A stretch of DNA of 5,260 bases, taken from positions 1-5,260 of IMG/VR virus record IMGVR_UViG_2877285697_000002. One strand, written 5' to 3'. Every line of letters begins with the position of its first letter. Position 1 is the stretch's first letter. Origin of the DNA: a virus. Taxonomy: Duplodnaviria > Heunggongvirae > Uroviricota > Caudoviricetes. The position numbers and the translations under genes are program-made. The notes under the pieces were generated by a model. The model searched no databases. It saw nothing but the letters and a program-made list of their open reading frames with translations, and was not told the DNA's origin. This document shows, piece after piece, positions 1-5,260 of the stretch.

Positions 1-210
1 AACCGTCCTCCGTATCCTGTCATACGCGTAAAACAGCCAGCGCTGACGTGATTTAGCACCGACGTAGCCCCACTGTTCGTCCATTTCAGCGCAGACAATC
101 ACATCACTGCCCGGTTGTATGCGCGAGGTTACCGACTGCGGCCTGAGTTTTTTAAGTGACGTAAAACCGTGTTGAGGCCAACGCCCATAATGCGTGCACT
201 GGCGCGACAT
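1..210 (-). CDS. insB: IS1 InsB (transposase catalytic part), 5' portion only; runs off the window edge. Normally expressed as InsAB' by a -1 frameshift.
   Basis: Minus-strand frame starting at the ATG at 210 translates [64 protein letters not shown]..., matching IS1 InsB. Overlaps the insA 3' end with the A6C slippery motif. Confidence 0.85.
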
Positions 211-404
211 CCGACGCCATTCATGGCCATATCAATGATTTTCTGGTGCGTACCGGGCTGAGAGGCGGTGTAAGTGAACTGTAGTTGCCATGTTTTACGG
301 CAATGAGAGCAGAGATAGCGCTGATGTCCGGCAGTGCTTTTGCCGTTACGCACCACGCCTTCAGTAGCGGAGCAGGAAGGACATCTGATGGAAATGGAAG
401 CCAC
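129..404 (-). CDS. insA: IS1 InsA (transposition regulator, N-terminal part of the InsAB' transposase)
   Basis: 91-aa translation [43 protein letters not shown]... is near-identical to IS1 InsA as I remember it, with a few substitutions (iso-IS1 variant). Includes the zinc-finger-like CPSC...CSHC motif. Confidence 0.92.
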
Positions 405-459
405 GCAAGCACCTTAAAATCACCATCATACACTAAATCAGTAAGTTGGCAGCATTACC

Positions 460-912
460 TGATTCGATATCCTTTTTCCTGGCTTCAAGTTTTTGTTGCA
501 ATGCGCAGATTTCATGAAACCTTTTTGTTATTTCGTGTTCTGCGCTAAACATGCATTTATCTCTGGTCGGAGTAGGGAGCAATATATCTTCGCCGTTGCC
601 GTCTTTCCCATATGAATACCATCCAACCCTTCTGCCAGATACAGTCAGATAAATTGAAGTAGAACGAATATCGCATGAGTAAAATGAACATCCCATCTTT
701 TCAAGTTCTTCACTTATAGCTACCAACTTGGATGATAACTGATCCACTTCCTCAGTTTTCTTCTTCCCGCCAAACGCAACAACTCTGGCGTCAAGTGCAA
801 GCTGGTTCTTTAGCTTTGTTACTTCTTCAAGTTCAGTGAACACCCCGGACTTAATTAAAGCGTTGCGTGCTATTACTTCTTTTATTCTCGTTGTTAAGCG
901 GATTGATGACAT
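460..912 (-). pseudogene. Hypothetical prophage early-left operon protein, apparently interrupted at its 3' end by IS1. The open frame continues 8 codons into the IS1 inverted repeat before stopping at 433.
   Basis: ORF-track frame 433..927; the likely true start is the ATG at 912 (MSSIRLTTRIKEV...), preceded by GAGAGG 6 nt upstream. The reading frame crosses the IS1 boundary at 459/460. No family recognised; the sequence is charged and looks coiled-coil-like. Confidence 0.5.
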
Positions 913-973
913 ATTAATTCCTCTCAAATAAGTGGTTTGCTACCTAATTTCATTTTCTGGCGACCAACACAAG

Positions 974-1357
974 TCATCTTGCTGTCAGCTGTTTTGATTT
1001 CCGGTAGCCTGCCGCGTAAATGGCTACGTTTGGAAGACATACACCAGTTTCTGGTTGCTTATGTCCAAACTCATTCGCGTACACAATGGCCGCTCGCTCC
1101 AGATTGCGTCTGTATTCTTTCTGTTGCCAGATCACGTCCTGTGCCATGAACTTAATTGGCTTAGCGTCTTCTATGCGCTCAGGCGTTTCGTGAGTACCTT
1201 TAGCCTGAATCTGCGCTCTGCTTAGAGTAGGGCGGTGTAATACTTCTGAACTTATTGCTTCTTCGCGGGCCAGCACGCCGTTAGCTAATGCCTTTGCCTT
1301 TAAACGCTCACGACGACGAGAACGTGAATTGCCTTTGAACTGAGTTCTGCGTGTCAT
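974..1357 (-). CDS. N: N-like transcription antitermination protein (P22 gene 24 / lambda N family)
   Basis: N-terminal arginine-rich motif (GNSRSRRRERLKAKALANG) and C-terminus ...VAIYAAGYRKSKQLTAR resemble P22 gp24 (...VALYAAGHRKSKQITAR, from memory). Strong SD AGGAGG 4-5 nt upstream of the ATG at 1357. Sits downstream of a boxB hairpin and to the left of the repressor gene, as in lambda and P22. Confidence 0.75.
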   Translation of the reverse strand: MTRRTQFKGNSRSRRRERLKAKALANGVLAREEAISSEVLHRPTLSRAQIQAKGTHETPERIEDAKPIKFMAQDVIWQQKEYRRNLERAAIVYANEFGHKQPETGVCLPNVAIYAAGYRKSKQLTAR

Positions 1358-1522
1358 ATAGACCTCCTGATGAACTTTGGTGGTGTGGTAGGTGGGAGAC
1401 CCATTTTGACCTGTTTCGGCCTACTTCAATTCGGCAATAGTCCCGCAGGCCTCGCCGCTTTACGTGCGACATATTCCCGTCCATGAACCCTTCACCACAC
1501 CCCAAAGTTCACTTTGGTTATT

Positions 1523-1537
1523 GCGCTTTGTCAGCGC
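1523..1537 (-). promoter_or_regulatory. nutL boxB RNA hairpin (N-utilisation site)
   Basis: Minus strand reads GCGCTGACAAAGCGC: a 5-bp stem (GCGCU/AGCGC) with loop GACAA, matching P22 boxB as I recall it. Lies about 165 nt upstream of the N start. Not followed by a U-tract, so not a terminator. No convincing boxA found nearby. Confidence 0.6.
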
Positions 1538-1599
1538 CGTAGATTCATATTCGAATCGTTGTATATTCACCGCCCTGGTGAGTAGTGCGTCCTGCTGAT

Positions 1600-1710
1600 G
1601 GCTTAAAGATAATCTAGGTTATAGTGGTGGTCAATAACTTAATTTATGGATTCTGATAAATAAGTTATAAGTGATGGATAATAAAGGTATTTTATTTTTG
1701 TAAATGTTGC
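1600..1710 (-). promoter_or_regulatory. Putative OL/PL early-left promoter and operator region
   Basis: Candidate leftward promoter: -35 TTGACC (complement of 1629-1634), 17-bp spacer, -10 TATCTT (complement of 1606-1611). Shares motifs with the cI-cro intergenic region: GGTTAT-N11-ATAACTT at 1617-1640 versus 4016-4039; GTTATAAGTGATGG at 1664-1677 versus GTTATAAGTAATGG at 4052-4065; ATAATAAAGGT at 1680-1690 versus 4010-4020. Promoter hexamers assigned by eye only. Confidence 0.4.
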
Positions 1711-1813
1711 GGATTGGTCGGTATTGGAAGGGGGGCGCTGTATTGCTGGCGTGTTGGTTCGTGGTTTACCGCATTTGCGGCTGTTAAATATGGGGGACGA
1801 TCGCGAGGCAAAG

Positions 1814-1843
1814 AAAACCCGGCGCGGAAGCCGGGTTTGAGAT
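1814..1843 (-). terminator. Rho-independent terminator, bidirectional in shape and stronger for leftward transcription
   Basis: Stem CCCGGC (1818-1823) / GCCGGG (1830-1835) with a 6-nt loop. On the minus strand it is followed by TTTTCTTTG; on the plus strand by TTTGAGATTT. Confidence 0.5.
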
Positions 1844-1853
1844 TTAGTTATTT

Positions 1854-1988
1854 TCAGCAGCTCGGATAAGAGCGGAAGTGCTGACGAACATGTTCGAGCT
1901 CACCGAAACGTATGCGGCAGTAACTGCGCACATAAACCGGCTTGTCGTGTTCGTAGATGAAGTCATCGCGATTAACATCGTGAGCCAT
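1854..1988 (-). CDS. Possible small protein (44 aa), hypothetical
   Basis: Minus-strand ORF ATG(1988)...TGA(1854-1856) encoding MAHDVNRDDFIYEHDKPVYVRSYCRIRFGELEHVRQHFRSYPSC, with SD AGGAGA 6 nt upstream. Ends about 20 nt before the terminator at 1818-1835. Below the ORF-track size cut-off; no homology recognised. Confidence 0.3.
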   Translation of the reverse strand: MAHDVNRDDFIYEHDKPVYVRSYCRIRFGELEHVRQHFRSYPSC

Positions 1989-2014
1989 AGCTTTTCTCCT
2001 GTTTTTGTATACAG

Positions 2015-2133
2015 CCTGTTTACCCGAACAGGTTGTAGTTTGTTGGGAGAACCGCTATCCTTGGCTTGCGGTTGCCAAGGGTGTAGCGGTAGGTAATCCT
2101 CCATACACTTCGGAAATACTGGATATATTTCCG
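2015..2133 (-). other. Cluster of three stable stem-loops in a non-coding stretch (possible structured RNA or leader)
   Basis: Perfect inverted repeats: CCTGTT-tacccg-AACAGG (2015-2032); CCTTGGC-ttgcggtt-GCCAAGG (2059-2080); CGGAAATA-ctggata-TATTTCCG (2111-2133). None has a clear U-tract. Confidence 0.4.
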
Positions 2134-2136
2134 ACC

Positions 2137-2160
2137 CAAAAAGCCCCGTTCCCTCGGGGC
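2137..2160 (-). terminator. Rho-independent terminator immediately after the stop of the 177-aa gene
   Basis: GCCCCG (2143-2148), loop TTCCCT, CGGGGC (2155-2160). Minus-strand transcript reads GCCCCGagggaaCGGGGCTTTTTGGG. The stop codon of the upstream gene is at 2162-2164. Confidence 0.7.
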
Positions 2161-2161
2161 T

Positions 2162-2695
2162 TTATTCTTTTGTTCCGCCATCAATCATCGCAAAAGATTC
2201 CACAATCAGACTGATACGCTTGGCTTCATCTTTTGTCAGGTCGCGAGGCAGGTTGCCAATGGTGACGATAAGATCTCCGCGCAATGGAATCGGCAGTTCA
2301 AATGTTTTTACACCAACCTGTACGTCAGTTACCGCCTTCTTCTTAGGTGCCATCTTTTTACGCTCCTTTTTTTTATTTACATCACCAACTGACACATTAA
2401 TCTCACCATTCTGGTAGGAGATAAATTTATCAATAGCACTTTGCATCCGGCTTTTGTATGCCTGCAAAGATGATTCAGAGGGTTTGCTTTCTGCTGAGTC
2501 TGCGTACGAACTTGCTAAGTTGGCAACGCTATAATCACGGATATCGGCATCGGTGAAATCCGACCCAAGAACAGTAAGAAGGCGCAGGGAAGAGTCACGG
2601 AGATTGCGGGCTGTAGCATCATTGACGATACCAAGCTCAGGAAGCATCTGTAAGAAGTCCTGAAATGCTTTGATGGTGTAGCTTTTGGTTTGCAT
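2162..2695 (-). CDS. Hypothetical protein, 177 aa, unknown function; accessory (moron-like) gene in the rexAB-equivalent position
   Basis: Uninterrupted ORF with its own terminator. Contains a lysine-rich linker (KKKERKKMAPKKK) between two predicted domains. No family recognised from memory. The start codon at 2695 is immediately preceded by a hairpin and T-tract, with the only SD-like GAGG inside the hairpin arm. An alternative internal start (Met17, near 2647) cannot be excluded. Confidence 0.65.
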   Translation of the reverse strand: MQTKSYTIKAFQDFLQMLPELGIVNDATARNLRDSSLRLLTVLGSDFTDADIRDYSVANLASSYADSAESKPSESSLQAYKSRMQSAIDKFISYQNGEINVSVGDVNKKKERKKMAPKKKAVTDVQVGVKTFELPIPLRGDLIVTIGNLPRDLTKDEAKRISLIVESFAMIDGGTKE

Positions 2696-2722
2696 AAAAA
2701 AGCCTCATACAGTTGATGAGGC
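2696..2722 (-). terminator. Hairpin plus U6 tract directly abutting the ATG of the 177-aa gene; candidate terminator/attenuator that sequesters the SD
   Basis: Minus strand reads GCCTCAT-caactgt-ATGAGGC-TTTTTT-ATG. The 7-bp stem 2702-2722 contains GAGG 7 nt upstream of the start codon. Confidence 0.5.
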
Positions 2723-2884
2723 AATACTAATTTGATCGTCAAAACAAATCAAGACCCAAGAAACAATCGTTGATTCCTTTCTTTGTGACAATACAGTCAA
2801 ATCAAGTTTTACAAGGATTACTTTTCTTCGATTACATTAAAGGCCGCACTTCTGCGACCATCCATCACCAAAATGTCTCTTCAC

Positions 2885-3226
2885 TCATCCGAAGAAGCAG
2901 CAATCCGGGTCAGCACGCACAAGCTCAAGCGCATCAGTCAGCGAAAGTTCAGTACTGTACTGATGCCATTTCATATCCTTCCGCATCCAATAGATTTTCC
3001 ATCTATCCAGAGAACGTATGTACTTGATTCTTGCTGATGGCAGGATGTTTGTTTCACCTGGGTTGCCCTGCCACACGGGGCGCTGTTCGCCGATATCTAT
3101 CGTTTGGTCATTGATGCTATAAACAATATCCAGTTCATTGCGGATATGTTCAGGCGGCCTTATGCTTTCAATGAATTGGTGAACTTCTTTTTTGACCGCT
3201 TGATATTCAAGGTCAGTGAACGCCAT
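2885..3226 (-). CDS. DUF3024-like small protein (113 aa), unknown function; immediately downstream of the repressor gene and probably co-transcribed with it
   Basis: Translation contains ...RPPEHIRNELDIVY...WKIYWMRKDMKWHQY...CCFFG, which resembles the conserved core of DUF3024 family proteins as I recall them (RPP.H.R..L...Y, W.LYWMRRDLKWH.Y, terminal FFG). SD GAGGAGG 4 nt upstream of the ATG at 3226. Only 37 bp from the repressor stop codon. Confidence 0.75.
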   Translation of the reverse strand: MAFTDLEYQAVKKEVHQFIESIRPPEHIRNELDIVYSINDQTIDIGEQRPVWQGNPGETNILPSARIKYIRSLDRWKIYWMRKDMKWHQYSTELSLTDALELVRADPDCCFFG

Positions 3227-3263
3227 CTATCCTCCTCACCCAAACGTTTCTTCAGGCCACTGG

Positions 3264-3971
3264 TTACCAGCTATGCGATGACCAGAATACTCTGCCAATA
3301 ATCCTTACGGTTTTATGAAATTCATCTCTATCCATTACTTCATCCGGGTACTCTTCGCGATTTATTGATCTGATTATCACCGATGTAGGAGTGGCGATTA
3401 ATGTTTTTACTCGCAACAAATCAGACTGGCAAATAGCGTAGGTTTTACCATCTCTGATGGTGGTATCTTGTGTGTTAACACCAACAACATCGCCATCGTG
3501 AAGAGTTGGTTCCATGCTTTGACCTGTTACCCTTACCAGCTTGGCAGAACTTTCAGTTACCCCCATCTTTTTCAGATAGTACTTTCTGAAAACCAAAGAG
3601 AACTCTGATGATTCTTCTATCTCGCAGCTACCGCTTCCAGCCGAAAACGAAACGTTAAGAAGAGGCAATGCGACAAACTCGTCATCGTTTTTTTTAATGT
3701 CTTCCCATACCACAGCTTTTAAAGATGACTCACGGATATTGGATGGTTCTTCATGTGTACCATCCCTCATTTCACCAATACCAGAACTAAGCCATTCAGG
3801 GCGTACTTTTAAAGCATTAGCTAACTCAACCATCTTGCGAGATCCGTTTGTTTTACCGGATGACATCTTCTGTATGGCTGGCTGAGATATTCCAACCATG
3901 TCCGCAAGCTGTGATTGCGACACCCCTGCCGATCTCATGGCTGCATTTAGTCTTTCTGCGAATGTTTTCAT
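3264..3971 (-). CDS. cI: CI-like prophage repressor: N-terminal XRE-type HTH plus C-terminal S24 (LexA-like) autopeptidase domain
   Basis: HTH: QSQLADMVGISQPAIQKMSSGK. S24 signature GQSMEPTL (catalytic Ser) with a downstream LRVKTL (catalytic Lys). Candidate Ala-Gly cleavage site in FSAGSG. Divergent from a cro-like gene across an operator region. The start is placed at ATG 3971 (MKTFAERL...); the ORF-track TTG at 4001 has no SD and is judged less likely. Confidence 0.85.
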   Translation of the reverse strand: MKTFAERLNAAMRSAGVSQSQLADMVGISQPAIQKMSSGKTNGSRKMVELANALKVRPEWLSSGIGEMRDGTHEEPSNIRESSLKAVVWEDIKKNDDEFVALPLLNVSFSAGSGSCEIEESSEFSLVFRKYYLKKMGVTESSAKLVRVTGQSMEPTLHDGDVVGVNTQDTTIRDGKTYAICQSDLLRVKTLIATPTSVIIRSINREEYPDEVMDRDEFHKTVRIIGRVFWSSHSW

Positions 3972-4082
3972 ATCCACAAATCTATAACTACGGTTATCCA
4001 AAGTAAAATAATAAAGGTTATTGCTATTTTTTATAACTTGGGTTATCCTTGGTTATAAGTAATGGCTGAAAGAGGTATGCTC
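3972..4082. promoter_or_regulatory. OR-like divergent promoter/operator region (PRM leftward, PR rightward) with repeated GGTTAT/ATAAC half-sites
   Basis: Half-sites: ATAAC-n4-GTTATCC at 3984-4000 and 4033-4049; GGTTAT-N11-ATAAC at 4016-4037; GGTTATAAGTAATGG at 4051-4065. Candidate PR: -35 TTGCTA (4021-4026), 17-bp spacer, -10 TATCCT (4044-4049). Exact promoter elements not resolved. Confidence 0.6.
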
Positions 4083-4307
4083 ATGAATTTAGTAATTCAA
4101 CGAGCCTTGAAGATTGTCGGTAGTCAAAAGCGGCTTGCCGACAAGTGTGGTGTAACGCAGCCAGCAGTACACAAATGGCGGAAAGGCGGGCAGGTTTCTC
4201 CAGAGAAAGTTACCGCCATCGTTAACGCCACTGGAGGGCAGATCAAGGCTTACGAAATTCGCCCAGATTTACCACACCTGTTTCCAAAACCGAATCAGGC
4301 AGCATAA
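4083..4307 (+). CDS. cro: Cro-like small HTH regulator (Cro/YdaS-type)
   Basis: 74 aa from ATG 4083 with SD AGAGG (4071-4075) 7 nt upstream. HTH-like QKRLADKCGVTQPAVHKWRKGG. Divergent from the repressor gene; small size and position are typical of Cro. Confidence 0.8.
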   Translation: MNLVIQRALKIVGSQKRLADKCGVTQPAVHKWRKGGQVSPEKVTAIVNATGGQIKAYEIRPDLPHLFPKPNQAA

Positions 4308-4314
4308 GTAACAC

Positions 4315-4360
4315 CGCTATTTTCACAATGGGCATTCGTCCTACGTCGCTGACAAAGCGA
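4315..4360 (+). promoter_or_regulatory. nutR-like site: boxA-like CGCTATTTT followed by a boxB hairpin
   Basis: boxA-like 4315-4323 (CGCTATTTT versus consensus CGCTCTTTA). boxB 4346-4360 TCGCTGACAAAGCGA: 5-bp stem with loop GACAA, the same loop as the nutL boxB at 1523-1537. Located between cro and cII, as in lambda. Confidence 0.55.
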
Positions 4361-4445
4361 GTTCCAAGATATCTGACCAACTAAGGCCATATGCGTTTCC
4401 ATGCATACCTTTCAACTAACTATTCACTATTGGAAATCTTAAGAA

Positions 4446-4745
4446 ATGGAACAAACAAGTTACAGCAAACTATCACAGCGCGATGTTGATCGCGCAGAAA
4501 CAGATTTACTCATCAACCTGTCAACGCTTACCCAGCGCGGTCTGGCAAAGATGATTGGCTGTCATGAATCGAAGATAAGCAGAACGGACTGGAGATTTAT
4601 TGCTTCGGTCTTGTGTGCTTTCGGAATGGCATCAGACATCAGTCCGATTAGCAGGGCTTTTAAGTATGCGCTTGATGGACTCACCAATAAAAAACGCCCG
4701 GTGTGCAAGACCGAGCGTTCTGATCAAATACAAATGGAATTCTGA
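4446..4745 (+). CDS. cII: CII-like transcriptional activator (lambda CII family)
   Basis: C-terminus ...LTNKKRPVCKTERSDQIQMEF closely matches lambda CII ...LTNKKRPAATERSEQIQMEF (from memory). HTH region KMIGCHESKISRTDW aligns with lambda AVGVDKSQISRWKRDW. Position right of cro matches. Confidence 0.88.
   Translation: MEQTSYSKLSQRDVDRAETDLLINLSTLTQRGLAKMIGCHESKISRTDWRFIASVLCAFGMASDISPISRAFKYALDGLTNKKRPVCKTERSDQIQMEF
4455..4468 (-). promoter_or_regulatory. Candidate CII-binding site / PRE -35 region (TTGC-N6-TTGT on the minus strand)
   Basis: Complement of 4455-4468 reads TTGCtgtaacTTGT, one mismatch from the TTGC-N6-TTGC CII recognition repeat. Lies in the 5' end of cII and is oriented leftward, as in lambda PRE. 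Confidence 0.35.
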
Positions 4746-4777
4746 GGTCATTACTGGATCTATCAACAGGAGTAATT

Positions 4778-5260
4778 ATGACATACGAAAATGACAAATT
4801 CCAGGTTCTGAAGAGCATGAAGGTGCCAGATGATTTTAAATCAAATGGCTTTGTTTATGTGCTTTCGAATGAGTGCATGCCAGGAATTTATAAGATTGGG
4901 ATGACTAAGCATTCACCAGAAGTTAGGGCTAAAGAAATTTCAGCCTCTACTGGCGTTCCTAAGCCATTTAAGGTGATAGCAGCCTTTCATTCAAATAATC
5001 CCGCATCAGATGAAAAACTCATTCATAAAGCCTTTGCAAAAGAGAGGCTTAGTGATAATCGAGAGTTTTTCAAGCTTGAAGATAATGATCTTTCTGAATC
5101 TCTAAATGAAATAAGGGCGCTGGTTGGCCCTGAAAGAAATGGCGAGACGGCAGAATACGCAATTTACGACTCATTCATTTCTTTTCGCCATGAAAATGAG
5201 CTTGATCTTAATGAGGAGCTTATAGAGCAAGGTCTGGGTAGTGTAGTTGGTCTGAGGTAG
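4778..5260 (+). CDS. T5orf172 / GIY-YIG-like domain protein (160 aa); putative nuclease-fold accessory protein
   Basis: N-terminal region GFVYVLSNECMPGIYKIGMTKHSPEVRAKEIS...FKVIAAFH...REFFK fits the T5orf172 (MUG113) / GIY-YIG pattern as I recall it (YVL.N...KIG.T...R..E...H..FF). SD AGGAG 6 nt upstream of the ATG at 4778. Stop codon TAG at 5258-5260. Confidence 0.7.
   Translation: MTYENDKFQVLKSMKVPDDFKSNGFVYVLSNECMPGIYKIGMTKHSPEVRAKEISASTGVPKPFKVIAAFHSNNPASDEKLIHKAFAKERLSDNREFFKLEDNDLSESLNEIRALVGPERNGETAEYAIYDSFISFRHENELDLNEELIEQGLGSVVGLR

Follow-up and report, generated by a model that had tools for sequence, protein, structure and literature searches.

Two accessory modules probably stacked between cI and OL/PL of a Stx-type prophage, one with an RNA leader that covers the start of a micro-protein

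The window analysed here is a stretch of 5,260 nucleotides (positions 1 to 5,260 of the IMG/VR virus record IMGVR_UViG_2877285697_000002). The gene order N–PL/OL–[cargo]–cI–OR–cro–cII, read in an earlier note on this DNA, was borne out by Pfam profiles and by operator and promoter scans; N_peptide matches at 974-1357, and a cro-like gene and a Phage_CII gene are present in the window (Pfam). The cargo between the repressor gene and OL/PL consists of a DUF3024 gene with its boundary hairpin, called module A, followed by module B (1815-2752). The features are as follows.

1606-1690, minus strand: OL/PL region, left bound of the slot (promoter-like match and operator-like site 1607-1623)
1815-1840, minus strand: intrinsic terminator closing module B, just upstream of OL/PL (-15.8 kcal/mol, z -4.2)
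1854-1988, minus strand: 44-aa ORF (phrog_21154, 1.9e-31; WP_000929756; MAHDVNRDDFIYEHDKPVYVRSYCRIRFGELEHVRQHFRSYPSC)
1989-2139, minus strand: structured leader or spacer of about 150 nt, with three local hairpins and a long-range helix
2140-2163, minus strand: intrinsic terminator GCCCCG...CGGGGC followed by U5, right after the stop codon of the 177-aa gene (-15.3 kcal/mol)
2162-2695, minus strand: gene for the 177-aa protein (ORF; phrog_2602)
2702-2722, minus strand: 5' hairpin holding the Shine-Dalgarno sequence (SD) of the 177-aa gene (-10.1 kcal/mol, z -2.3)
2724-2752, minus strand: proposed sigma-70-like promoter, TTGATT (2752-2747), 17 nt, TAGTAT (2729-2724), read from the sequence
2842-2859, minus strand: conserved hairpin GGTCGCAGAAGTGCGGCC, 3' boundary of the DUF3024 module (-12.1 kcal/mol, z -3.8)
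2885-3226, minus strand: DUF3024 gene, 113 aa, equivalent to L0084 of phage 933W (Pfam DUF3024, PADLOC PDC-S43, phrog_3467)
3264-3971, minus strand: cI-type repressor gene with HTH and Peptidase_S24 domains (Pfam Peptidase_S24 4e-18, HTH_3 3e-07)

The longest ORF of cI extends to 4001; the RefSeq start is at 3971, and NZ_CP065613 lists the gene as an XRE-family regulator of 708 nt. Operator-like sites of the form TATAAC-N4-GTTATCC were found in OR (3983-4057) and OL (1607-1623) only, with 8 matches observed against 1.3 expected, and a PL-like sequence, TTGACC-17-TATCTT, lies at 1634-1606 on the minus strand. The terminator at 1815-1840 has equivalents in tM of 933W, annotated at the corresponding place, and in timm of lambda. 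The position of the cargo is that of RexA and RexB in lambda: the same slot and strand, between cI and OL/PL with a terminator before OL, and the first gene of the slot is read from the cI transcript in lambda and presumably likewise in the window. The proposed equivalence with the rexAB slot is strengthened by relatives in which lambda cI itself is trailed by DUF3024, which starts 9 nt later. The likeness ends at position. There is no sequence or profile similarity to RexA/RexB, in keeping with the earlier note (PDC-S43 was the only PADLOC profile matched by either protein), the window proteins are far smaller, and in place of rexAB there are two modules unrelated to each other, of which one brings a promoter-like site and an RNA leader of its own.

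The 113-aa protein of module A, described before as DUF3024-like, matched Pfam DUF3024 (PF11225) with E 2.4e-31 and 108.7 bits (cut-off 24.9), over positions 2-112 of 112. Given that the gap between the cI stop (3264) and the DUF3024 ATG (3226) measures 37 nt, contains a GAGGAGG SD and has no terminator, DUF3024 is presumably co-transcribed with cI and translated from the cI (PRM/PRE) transcript. L0084 is assigned to the pM operon in the 933W annotation. The AF2 model (pLDDT 89.5) is an alpha-beta5-alpha sandwich, and since this is a small alpha/beta sandwich without a catalytic signature, the protein is predicted most likely to act through binding another protein. It also matches PADLOC PDC-S43 end to end (1-115 of 115, E 7.2e-42). 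PDC-S43 is a computational candidate of PADLOC whose sole mention found in the literature is a PADLOC prediction in O157:H7 genomes; no experimental report of protection against phage was found. The term 'DUF3024' was absent from searchable papers, searches for L0084 and L0083 returned unrelated matches only, and none of the accession numbers was present in the DefensePredictor supplements.

DUF3024 always lies 9-66 nt 3' of cI, behind at least six cI alleles (U0-U4 and U7, lambda cI among them), and in Stx-type (Traversvirus) phages its association with cI is constant. What lies downstream of it is interchangeable: the Stk kinase cassette of 933W, a 162-aa gene, ParA-like ATPases or the 177-aa gene, and at least five other cargos and at least ten different downstream neighbours were counted in all. 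The boundary hairpin at 2842-2859 recurs in 95 fetched loci irrespective of the downstream cargo. It is a weak terminator at best because UUUAAU follows the stem, and the T-run is absent from the 933W copy. A Hex/PsiB-like role of DUF3024 in modulating lysogeny, for example by damping RecA-stimulated cleavage of the repressor instead of excluding phages, is an improbable reading of this gene.

The earlier note had taken the DUF3024 gene and the 177-aa gene to be a two-gene cassette, and their distribution largely refutes this. An intact DUF3024 gene was found upstream in 3 of 24 clusters of the family of the 177-aa protein, referred to here as the CB family, and was lacking in the other 21, so that the conserved co-occurrence proposed as a check is confined to three clusters. 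Complete E. coli genomes give the same picture, with DUF3024 in 227 of 5426 and the 177-aa gene in 6. In Sakai-type phages (VT2-Sakai), DUF3024 is a frameshifted remnant next to an intact 173-aa CB homologue and small ORF. Within the window the two genes are separated by two hairpins and a separate promoter-like site. The two modules are thus independent, and the cI–OL/PL interval is very probably made up of two lysogen-side accessory modules, A then B, stacked one behind the other; this high confidence applies to the architecture of the slot as a whole. The limits given before were right in part. Both ORFs at 2162-3226 are present, but module B runs on to 1815 and the leader and 44-aa ORF (1854-2161) had been omitted.

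The slot had been suggested to be a hotspot for cargo, and its residents in relatives agree with this. In 933W, this position is occupied by the Stk cassette (L0083-stk-L0081), preceded as in the window by the DUF3024 gene (98% identical) and the boundary hairpin. Its proteins (a 153-aa protein and a 348-aa kinase) are unrelated to the window cargo and are read from pM, whereas the cargo of the window is insulated and comes with a leader RNA of its own. The Stk kinase is activated upon HK97 infection and excludes HK97 (PMC3681748), from which it follows that the cargo position behind DUF3024 carries exclusion functions. In a Yersinia prophage, the abortive-infection protein BstA (KilA-N and BstA_C, 254 aa) lies directly after cI and just upstream of a homologous module B; it is a further slot resident made up of one gene and is not homologous to the proteins of module B. 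Module B was found in cI–PL slots of lambdoid prophages of Escherichia, Salmonella, Yersinia and Proteus, in accessory slots of satellites with integrase, primase and capsid genes, and on an element that encodes a replicase and a serine recombinase. Its neighbours include BstA, Kiwa, PDC-S15, HigBA-like genes and DUF3024/PDC-S43.

The hairpin that had been noted after each of the two genes was found in both cases, at 2859-2842 on the minus strand for DUF3024 and at 2163-2140 for the 177-aa gene. The latter terminator is conserved, with a CG-to-UA covariation in the relative A5. At the other end of the 177-aa gene, the putative promoter scores 8/12, under the scan threshold, and its predicted start is at the foot of the 5' hairpin; the arrangement TTGATT-N17-TAnnAT also occurs in L102 (TATTAT) and in the Yersinia locus L004 (TACCAT). 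The sequestered SD described previously was confirmed. GAGG (2703-2706) lies in the 3' arm of the hairpin (2722-2702, minus strand) and is followed by U6 and then the AUG (2695-2693). This hairpin is kept with compensatory changes in L102, L103, L105 and L004, the flank pairs in the Salmonella/Citrobacter-type and Yersinia homologues being GCCUCAU/AUGAGGC, CACCUCAUA/UAUGAGGUG and UUCCUCA/UGAGGAA. Translation of the 177-aa gene looks restrained; in the satellite homologues the 5' hairpin is not conserved as an SD trap, so the trap is not universal.

The statement that the 177-aa protein has no recognised family withstood searches of Pfam, NCBIfam and PADLOC, none of which gave a significant match, and its sole profile match is phrog_2602 (function unassigned). 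PADLOC gave 0 families at E <= 0.1 for both the 177-aa and the 44-aa protein, and matches to CagZ, DUF7088 and DUF6517 in the profile searches with these two proteins were rejected as weak and below their own cut-offs. Residues 1-100 have the fold of a tyrosine-recombinase core-binding (SAM-like) domain, as in lambda Int (75-175), XerD and IntI4. They are followed by a disordered K-rich linker (102-143) and an invariant C-terminal module (127-170, KTFELPIPLRGDLIVTIGNLPRDLTKDEAKRIS.IVESFA). In contrast to the tyrosine recombinases, the protein ends at residue 177 without the catalytic domain carrying R-H-R-Y, and has instead the basic linker and an unrelated module of about 45 residues. It gave no match to Phage_integrase of Pfam and none to the Phage_int_SAM families at E 0.1; its likeness to integrases is at the level of the fold and is not family membership. 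The C-terminal module, described as a conserved beta-beta-alpha unit and modelled with low confidence, is widespread but not filed in databases, with 471 representatives across metagenomes. Its conservation is not at the DNA level, as 41-76% of identical codons differ synonymously.

A sequence search of the PDB gave non-significant matches only (NF-YB, lambda Int, Rpn8, SFPQ RRM). Those to NF-YB and Rpn8 were dropped and those to lambda Int and the RRM were retained as leads. The RRM comparison covers an RNP2/helix-1-like stretch only (tigNLPrdLtkdEAkRI against FVGNLPADITEDEFKRL, E 0.39), and a significant match with both RNP1 and RNP2 was not obtained, so that it is a lead and nothing further. 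The 177-aa protein may be regarded as a putative DNA-binding protein.

Downstream of the terminator lies the structured leader, which folds with a minimum free energy of -73.7 kcal/mol (z -7.7; z -2.6 to -7.3 in 17 relatives). In its long-range helix, AUAGC (2058-2054) and UUCUCC (2051-2046) pair with GGAGAA (1999-1994) and GCUAU (1991-1987), which covers the SD (GGAGAA) of the 44-aa ORF and overlaps its AUG (GCUAU). RNAalifold and pair counts gave 94% paired for this helix against 29-48% when it was slid, and 21 double-change cells were observed against 7.5 in shuffles. Relatives have covarying duplexes against the ribosome-binding site, with weaker pairing for type C leaders. Rfam 15 gave no match at E <= 1 anywhere in the window, and the known sRNAs of Stx phages (Pas sRNAs, HnrS, AgvB, AsxR) are located in late regions and not in this one.

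The 44-aa ORF is annotated in RefSeq and as gp19 of SH2026Stx1. Its product, with 7 acidic, 7 basic and 5 His residues, lacks any hydrophobic stretch. An overlapping 86-aa ORF at 1844-2104 is spurious, being broken to 27 aa in L102 where the 44-aa frame is kept. If the cassette is defined as a CB gene followed on its own strand by a small ORF at a distance of 150-240 nt, nearly all of the 58 unique loci have it; the distance is 154-177 nt in essentially every locus of the family, and the spacing is constant in all contexts, distant proteobacterial metagenome loci included. A reverse search from the 44-aa ORF gave 60 IMG/VR loci, in 46 of which the ORF is preceded by the CB gene, and the leader with its ORF and the 177-aa gene were found in the same 6 complete E. 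coli genomes. Terminator, leader and 44-aa ORF are therefore the constant partner of the 177-aa gene.

The ORF at this position is of three types with no detectable homology; homology of types A and B was rejected (hhalign probability 0.3%). This makes a single mechanism for the effector doubtful. Only in non-enterobacterial relatives (L142, L170, L173, L174, L176, L178, L182) do the micro-ORFs end in QL[SEDNV]LF, which fits the beta-clamp-binding consensus (QL[SD]LF); this tail hints at a replisome target. The ORF of the window ends in ...HFRSYPSC, without a C-terminal QLxLF pentapeptide.

Module B is an insulated cassette consisting of a predicted promoter of its own, the SD hairpin, the 177-aa gene, a terminator, the leader, the 44-aa ORF and a final terminator. 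For its working we propose the following. The 44-aa micro-protein would be its effector, whose synthesis in the lysogen is prevented by the terminator ahead of the leader and by the RNA lock, and the 177-aa protein would bind nucleic acid and serve as regulator or sensor. The lock might be opened by superinfection, by induction of a competing element or by a similar trigger, upon which the effector would block the competitor or the cell, and the outcome would be exclusion or abortive infection, as for other residents of the slot. Module B probably acts in conflicts between mobile elements, the argument from context being partly circular since the slot collects all kinds of morons. Stacked modules, with B acting in exclusion or abortive infection by way of an RNA-locked effector, form the best explanation overall and come close to an even chance of being right. 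The exclusion or defence function taken by itself, with roles and phenotype drawn from context, is held tentatively and at somewhat less than that; against it are the micro-protein of the window, which is without the QLxLF tail, and the lack of a PADLOC model for the 177-aa and 44-aa proteins. A more specific version, in which module B is a three-part conflict system whose integrase-derived protein senses DNA, whose RRM-like module unlocks the leader and whose effector, clamp-tailed in many lineages, arrests replication, with DUF3024 as a separate cI-linked exclusion factor, is unlikely.

Equally unlikely is a regulatory role, in which the 177-aa protein, with a DNA-binding domain, a basic linker and an oligomerisation module, would be a nucleoid-associated or transcription-factor-like binder that tunes genes of the element or the host, with the micro-protein as a co-factor. 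Against this, module B is absent from most close relatives sharing cI, N and PL, so the phage circuit can do without it; it also travels between element types that are unrelated, and an RNA lock on a co-factor would be left without explanation.

Slightly more doubtful is an addiction or stabilisation system of toxin-antitoxin type, in which a leaked micro-protein toxin would kill cells that lose or rearrange the element and there would be no anti-phage role. The hallmark of type I toxin mRNAs (hok/sok, tisB/istR) is a long-range helix that sequesters SD and AUG, and module B likewise has a tiny ORF with both signals hidden by such a helix in a structured 5' leader. It also rides on prophages, satellites and the element with replicase and serine recombinase, and in L142 it adjoins a Gp49/HTH_37 (HigBA-like) pair. 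However, the micro-proteins are polar and basic and are not membrane peptides, the 44-aa protein not being the small hydrophobic toxin of a type I system, and no antisense RNA was identified. Unlike in type I systems, a gene for a putative DNA-binding protein invariably precedes the ORF, and three unrelated types of peptide occupy one position. That partner, a protein of 160-200 aa, does not belong to a known antitoxin class. The adjacent or overlapping co-translated genes of a type II system are not seen either, a terminator and a 173-nt spacer lying between the two ORFs, and integrated prophages would gain little from addiction.

The least probable reading is that DUF3024 and the 177-aa protein work jointly as one defence or exclusion system, which is largely refuted by distribution and by the exchange of partners behind DUF3024. 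In its favour, three diverged versions have the two genes side by side and on one strand: the SH2026Stx1 type; the Sakai type, with a 173-aa homologue of 38.6% identity; and Proteus, with the order cI-DUF3024-CB-leader-small ORF-N and both genes about 37% identical to those of the window. This adjacency is accounted for by residence in one slot with DUF3024 proximal to cI.

The locus is the immunity region of Shiga-toxin-type prophages, where cargo expressed from the lysogen decides which other phages can infect a pathogenic strain. DUF3024 is an unstudied fixed partner of cI, present in 933W itself. The CB family is an undescribed protein family that combines the fold of an integrase core-binding domain with a widespread C-terminal module, and always coupled to it is a leader RNA, absent from Rfam, that locks the start site of a micro-protein. 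Should module B prove to be an exclusion system, the known repertoire would be extended by the design of an RNA-gated micro-protein. As a regulator or addiction module, it is still a widespread and undescribed part of mobile elements.

The features of the window, from an ORF listing and profile scans (Pfam, NCBIfam, PADLOC, PHROG), are as follows.

129-404, minus strand: IS1 InsA gene
433-927, minus strand: Nmad5-family gene
974-1357, minus strand: antiterminator N (Pfam N_peptide, 2e-15)
1606-1690, minus strand: PL-like promoter and OL (promoter-like and operator-like sites)
1854-1988, minus strand: 44-aa ORF (phrog_21154)
2162-2695, minus strand: 177-aa ORF (phrog_2602)
2885-3226, minus strand: DUF3024 ORF
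3264-3971/4001, minus strand: cI-type repressor (HTH and Peptidase_S24)
3983-4057: OR, three TATAAC-N4-GTTATCC sites
Plus strand, in this order: cro-like gene, cII, T5orf172/MUG113 gene

On re-reading the window, the coordinates in the earlier note, its 37-nt gap, DUF3024 assignment, hairpins and Shine-Dalgarno (SD) sequence within a hairpin were all correct. It had seen no recognisable family for the 177-aa protein, and the scans likewise gave no Pfam, NCBIfam or PADLOC family. The nearest phage is SH2026Stx1, a Traversvirus, with 95% identity across 1600-4060 (gp19-gp22). The gene at the cro position (4062-4307, plus strand) scores best in Pfam against YdaS_toxin (2.7e-17) and more weakly against P22_Cro (3e-06); the former reflects HTH family naming and is no evidence of a toxin. 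The Nmad5-family gene appears to be truncated by the adjoining IS1 since it encodes 164 aa here versus 207 aa (624 nt) in relatives; homology of the window to complete E. coli genomes begins only at position 460. Relatives carry the O replication gene directly 3' of cII; at this place the window encodes a 160-aa protein (T5orf172/MUG113, GIY-YIG-like; 4778-5260, plus strand), whose stop codon is the window's final codon. The protein matches PADLOC's candidate PDC-S57 (3e-29) as well as the PD-Lambda-1 C-terminal domain (4e-12) and may be another inserted defence-type gene, because megablast matches of the window to relatives stop at 4741-4783.

The DUF3024 and 177-aa genes had been read as a two-gene defence or exclusion cassette. 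Eighty IMG/VR loci were collected with a DUF3024 alignment and the flanking genes on both sides were classified. In almost every E. coli or Salmonella locus the gene 5' of DUF3024 is a cI-type repressor, at a gap of 9-66 nt, and these repressors comprise at least six alleles, unrelated or partly related. Lambda cI itself is among them at a gap of 9 nt, therefore DUF3024 lies there literally at the rexA position, as expected if the slot between cI and PL is the rexAB equivalent. The gene 3' of DUF3024 encodes the 153-aa L0083 protein, with the Stk kinase after it, in 29 of the 80 loci; it is the 177-aa gene in 26 loci, with frameshifted copies in 6 more, and encodes a 162-aa protein in 12. Other loci have either of two ParA-like ATPases or further genes. 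The three main cargos were found in most of the possible pairings with the commoner cI alleles. The DUF3024 gene of 933W is L0084, annotated within the pM (PRM) transcription unit ending at tM, and Stk, in the same unit, excludes HK97 (PMC3681748). Intact DUF3024 is found upstream in only 3 of 24 clusters (95% identity) of the CB gene, as we call the 177-aa gene and its homologues, and of 5426 complete E. coli genomes 227 have DUF3024 DNA and 6 have the 177-aa gene. Thus DUF3024 is tied to cI and not to the 177-aa gene, the proposed pair is not upheld, and the slot holds two independent modules. Decay of either gene was also observed. In six IMG/VR loci (L038, L051 and relatives; cluster D3) a frameshift shortens the 177-aa product to 121 aa, and in VT2-Sakai-type phages DUF3024 is split into two unannotated pieces (NC_000902 10400-10900, L147) with the 173-aa CB homologue and micro-ORF both intact.

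A hairpin, GGTCGCAGARRTGCGGCC (window 2842-2859), lies 3' of DUF3024 in 95 fetched loci. Because it is kept whichever cargo comes next while the run after it varies (no T-run in 933W, UUUAAU in the window, U6 where the cargo is of Sakai type), it is a module boundary mark and a terminator in some combinations only. Recombination that swaps cargos may use it as a junction, or it may stabilise mRNA 3' ends. A remnant persists upstream of the CB gene in L114, where no DUF3024 ORF was detected upstream.

When the flanks of CB family members from very different contexts were compared, the CB gene was in every case followed by a terminator, 150-175 nt of conserved non-coding sequence and a small ORF. 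These contexts were E. coli Stx prophages, Salmonella and Citrobacter prophages, Yersinia lambdoid prophages (order cI-(BstA)-CB gene), Raoultella/Enterobacter satellites with integrase, AlpA and primase (and capsid genes in one satellite type), a Proteus prophage (cI-DUF3024-CB-leader-ORF-N) and metagenome contigs of free-living proteobacteria. The constant partner of the 177-aa gene is this small ORF, of 44 aa in the window, which with its leader lies beyond 2162 and so outside the interval 2162-3226 that had been taken as the unit. CB gene, leader and small ORF form a conserved triad, here module B (1815-2752). The small ORF is of type A (40-45 aa, phrog_21154; the window's type), type B (49-58 aa, very basic, phrog_33859) or type C (44-46 aa, CxxC...CxC pattern), with no homology detectable between types A and B. 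CB genes that are otherwise similar can have different types: the 173-aa protein is accompanied by type A in Sakai and by type B in Proteus. A reverse search with the type A ORF gave 60 IMG/VR loci, 46 with the CB gene directly upstream and 14 in which a different DNA-binding gene or the remnant of a CB gene precedes the ORF. The six complete E. coli genomes that have the 177-aa gene are the same six that have the leader plus ORF stretch. The Proteus mirabilis example (L209, NZ_OL790812, 1107500-1114500) is an unannotated stretch of a 4.09-Mb PLSDB record filed as 'plasmid', with the lambdoid order cI-DUF3024-CB-leader-type B ORF-N; its 173-aa CB protein is very similar to the E. coli Sakai version over the N-terminal ~60 residues compared, and the micro-ORF type differs. 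Type A micro-proteins of non-enterobacterial relatives (L142, L170-L182) end in QLSLF, QLELF, QLDLF, QLNLF or QLVLF, pentapeptides that look like the beta-sliding-clamp-binding consensus and give the family a further hint of an exclusion-type function. This tail is missing from the window's 44-aa micro-protein, and clamp binding is for that reason not extended to it. Some QLxLF-tailed ORFs follow XRE+ImmA/IrrE pairs or coiled-coil wHTH proteins in place of the CB protein.

The spacer is predicted to be a structured leader that hides the micro-ORF start site. The 179 nt from CB stop codon to AUG in the window fold at -73.7 kcal/mol (z = -7.7 versus dinucleotide shuffles), and the leaders of seventeen relatives give z of -2.6 to -7.3. 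The predicted window fold has the SD (GGAGAA) paired with UUCUCC, and GCUAU, which overlaps the AUG, paired with AUAGC. The anti-SD duplex is kept in relatives of differing sequence: AUAACGGUUGGCC with GGUUAAUCGUUAU in L007 (-16.5 kcal/mol), AUAACUGUUACC with GGUAAACAGUUAU in L112 (-13.0 kcal/mol) and UUUACC with GGUAA in L104 (duplex total -10.9 kcal/mol). RNAalifold of a 12-sequence alignment predicted the terminator, a long-range ACCGC/GCGGU helix, a 3' hairpin and the anti-SD helix. Paired cells amounted to 94% versus 29-48% with partners slid, a contrast inflated because this alignment also supplied the structure; there were 21 double-change cells, against 7.5 in shuffles, and none of 500 shuffles reached that number. 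The putative RNA lock over the small-ORF start site thus covaries. Type B leaders fold more cleanly still (alifold -40 kcal/mol, 16 sequences). The leader had no Rfam match.

Upstream of the 177-aa gene a TTGATT-N17-TAnnAT sequence, common to three diverged homologues, would place the transcription start at the foot of the SD-containing hairpin. This hairpin is kept through compensatory changes and is followed by a U-run in some relatives only; satellite versions have a 5' hairpin that does not trap the SD. In the window both ORFs of module B have predicted occluded ribosome-binding sites. Module B looks insulated, given the boundary hairpin and a hairpin with U6 before it, the terminators after each ORF and these occluded sites, the promoter and transcript ends being predictions. 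In several subfamilies (L115, L118, L129, L004, L010) a motif (G)CTAATCC(T) lies 3' of an inverted repeat (e.g. GCCGATCGATGA...TGATCGGC), 60-90 nt upstream of the CB start, the window's counterpart being GTAATCCTTG at 2801-2810; it may be an operator or boundary element.

At the sequence level the 177-aa family comprises 53 clusters, exclusively in Enterobacterales; the N-terminal half varies, and the last 45 residues hardly change. This conservation is at the protein level, as 41%-76% of identical codons differ synonymously between diverged pairs. AlphaFold gave a confident four-helix domain (residues 1-100), whose fold is that of an integrase core-binding domain. Residues 102-143 form a linker that is rich in lysine and disordered, and the C-terminus, with a single helix, is modelled poorly. 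A search of 1.84 billion proteins with a profile of the C-terminal module alone (consensus PIPLR.dL.V.I.nLP.DLT..EA.RI) gave 471 representatives at E <= 1e-3, none with a Pfam family. Most are of 150-200 aa with a CB-like domain, low-complexity linker and module; some are fusions to other N-termini, an HNH-like domain among them (P0134, P0244), and many are stand-alone peptides of 40-65 aa. A weak likeness of the module to the RRM RNP2-strand/helix-1 segment (E 0.39) is a lead only.

The AlphaFold model of DUF3024 is confident (pLDDT 89.5) and has an antiparallel sheet of five strands between an N-terminal and a C-terminal helix; CFFG is invariant at the C-terminus. The protein matches PADLOC PDC-S43, a computational defence candidate, and so is already catalogued and not new as such; PDC-S43 is mentioned in the searchable literature only as a prediction in O157:H7 genomes, and the term 'DUF3024' is absent from searchable papers. 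Distant homologues occur in Vibrio, Azonexus and Polaromonas replicons (35-47% identity), on Rhodococcus and Mycobacterium plasmids (<60%) and in phage contigs with a non-repressor gene upstream, thus DUF3024 is not specific to one repressor. It would be made from the cI transcript and may act by protein binding; a less likely rival reading makes it a modulator of induction, comparable to 434 Hex.

It is textbook knowledge that exclusion genes are carried in the rex slot. The earlier view of the slot as a cargo hotspot holds. Genes within 3.5 kb of CB genes include eight clusters of S24 repressors, O, P and N, together with Kiwa, PDC-S15, PDC-S43, methyltransferases, BstA and HigBA-like genes. 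Pfam, NCBIfam, PADLOC, Rfam, PHROG annotations and the searchable literature minus one relevant screen gave no record of a strict linkage of DUF3024 to cI along with free exchange of cargo, of the CB-domain family and its widespread C-terminal module, of the conserved leader RNA or of the micro-ORF at its fixed position. In module B the micro-protein may be the effector and the CB protein its regulator or sensor. Given that the slot is a cargo hotspot and that the cassette rides on satellites, exclusion or abortive infection is the favoured, still tentative function; module B could otherwise be an addiction module or a regulator. The anatomy is solid, and the two modules are best described as lysogen-side accessory or exclusion cargo, the exclusion part being suggested by context. 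The predictions on module B and DUF3024 are testable, in a phage group that is medically relevant.
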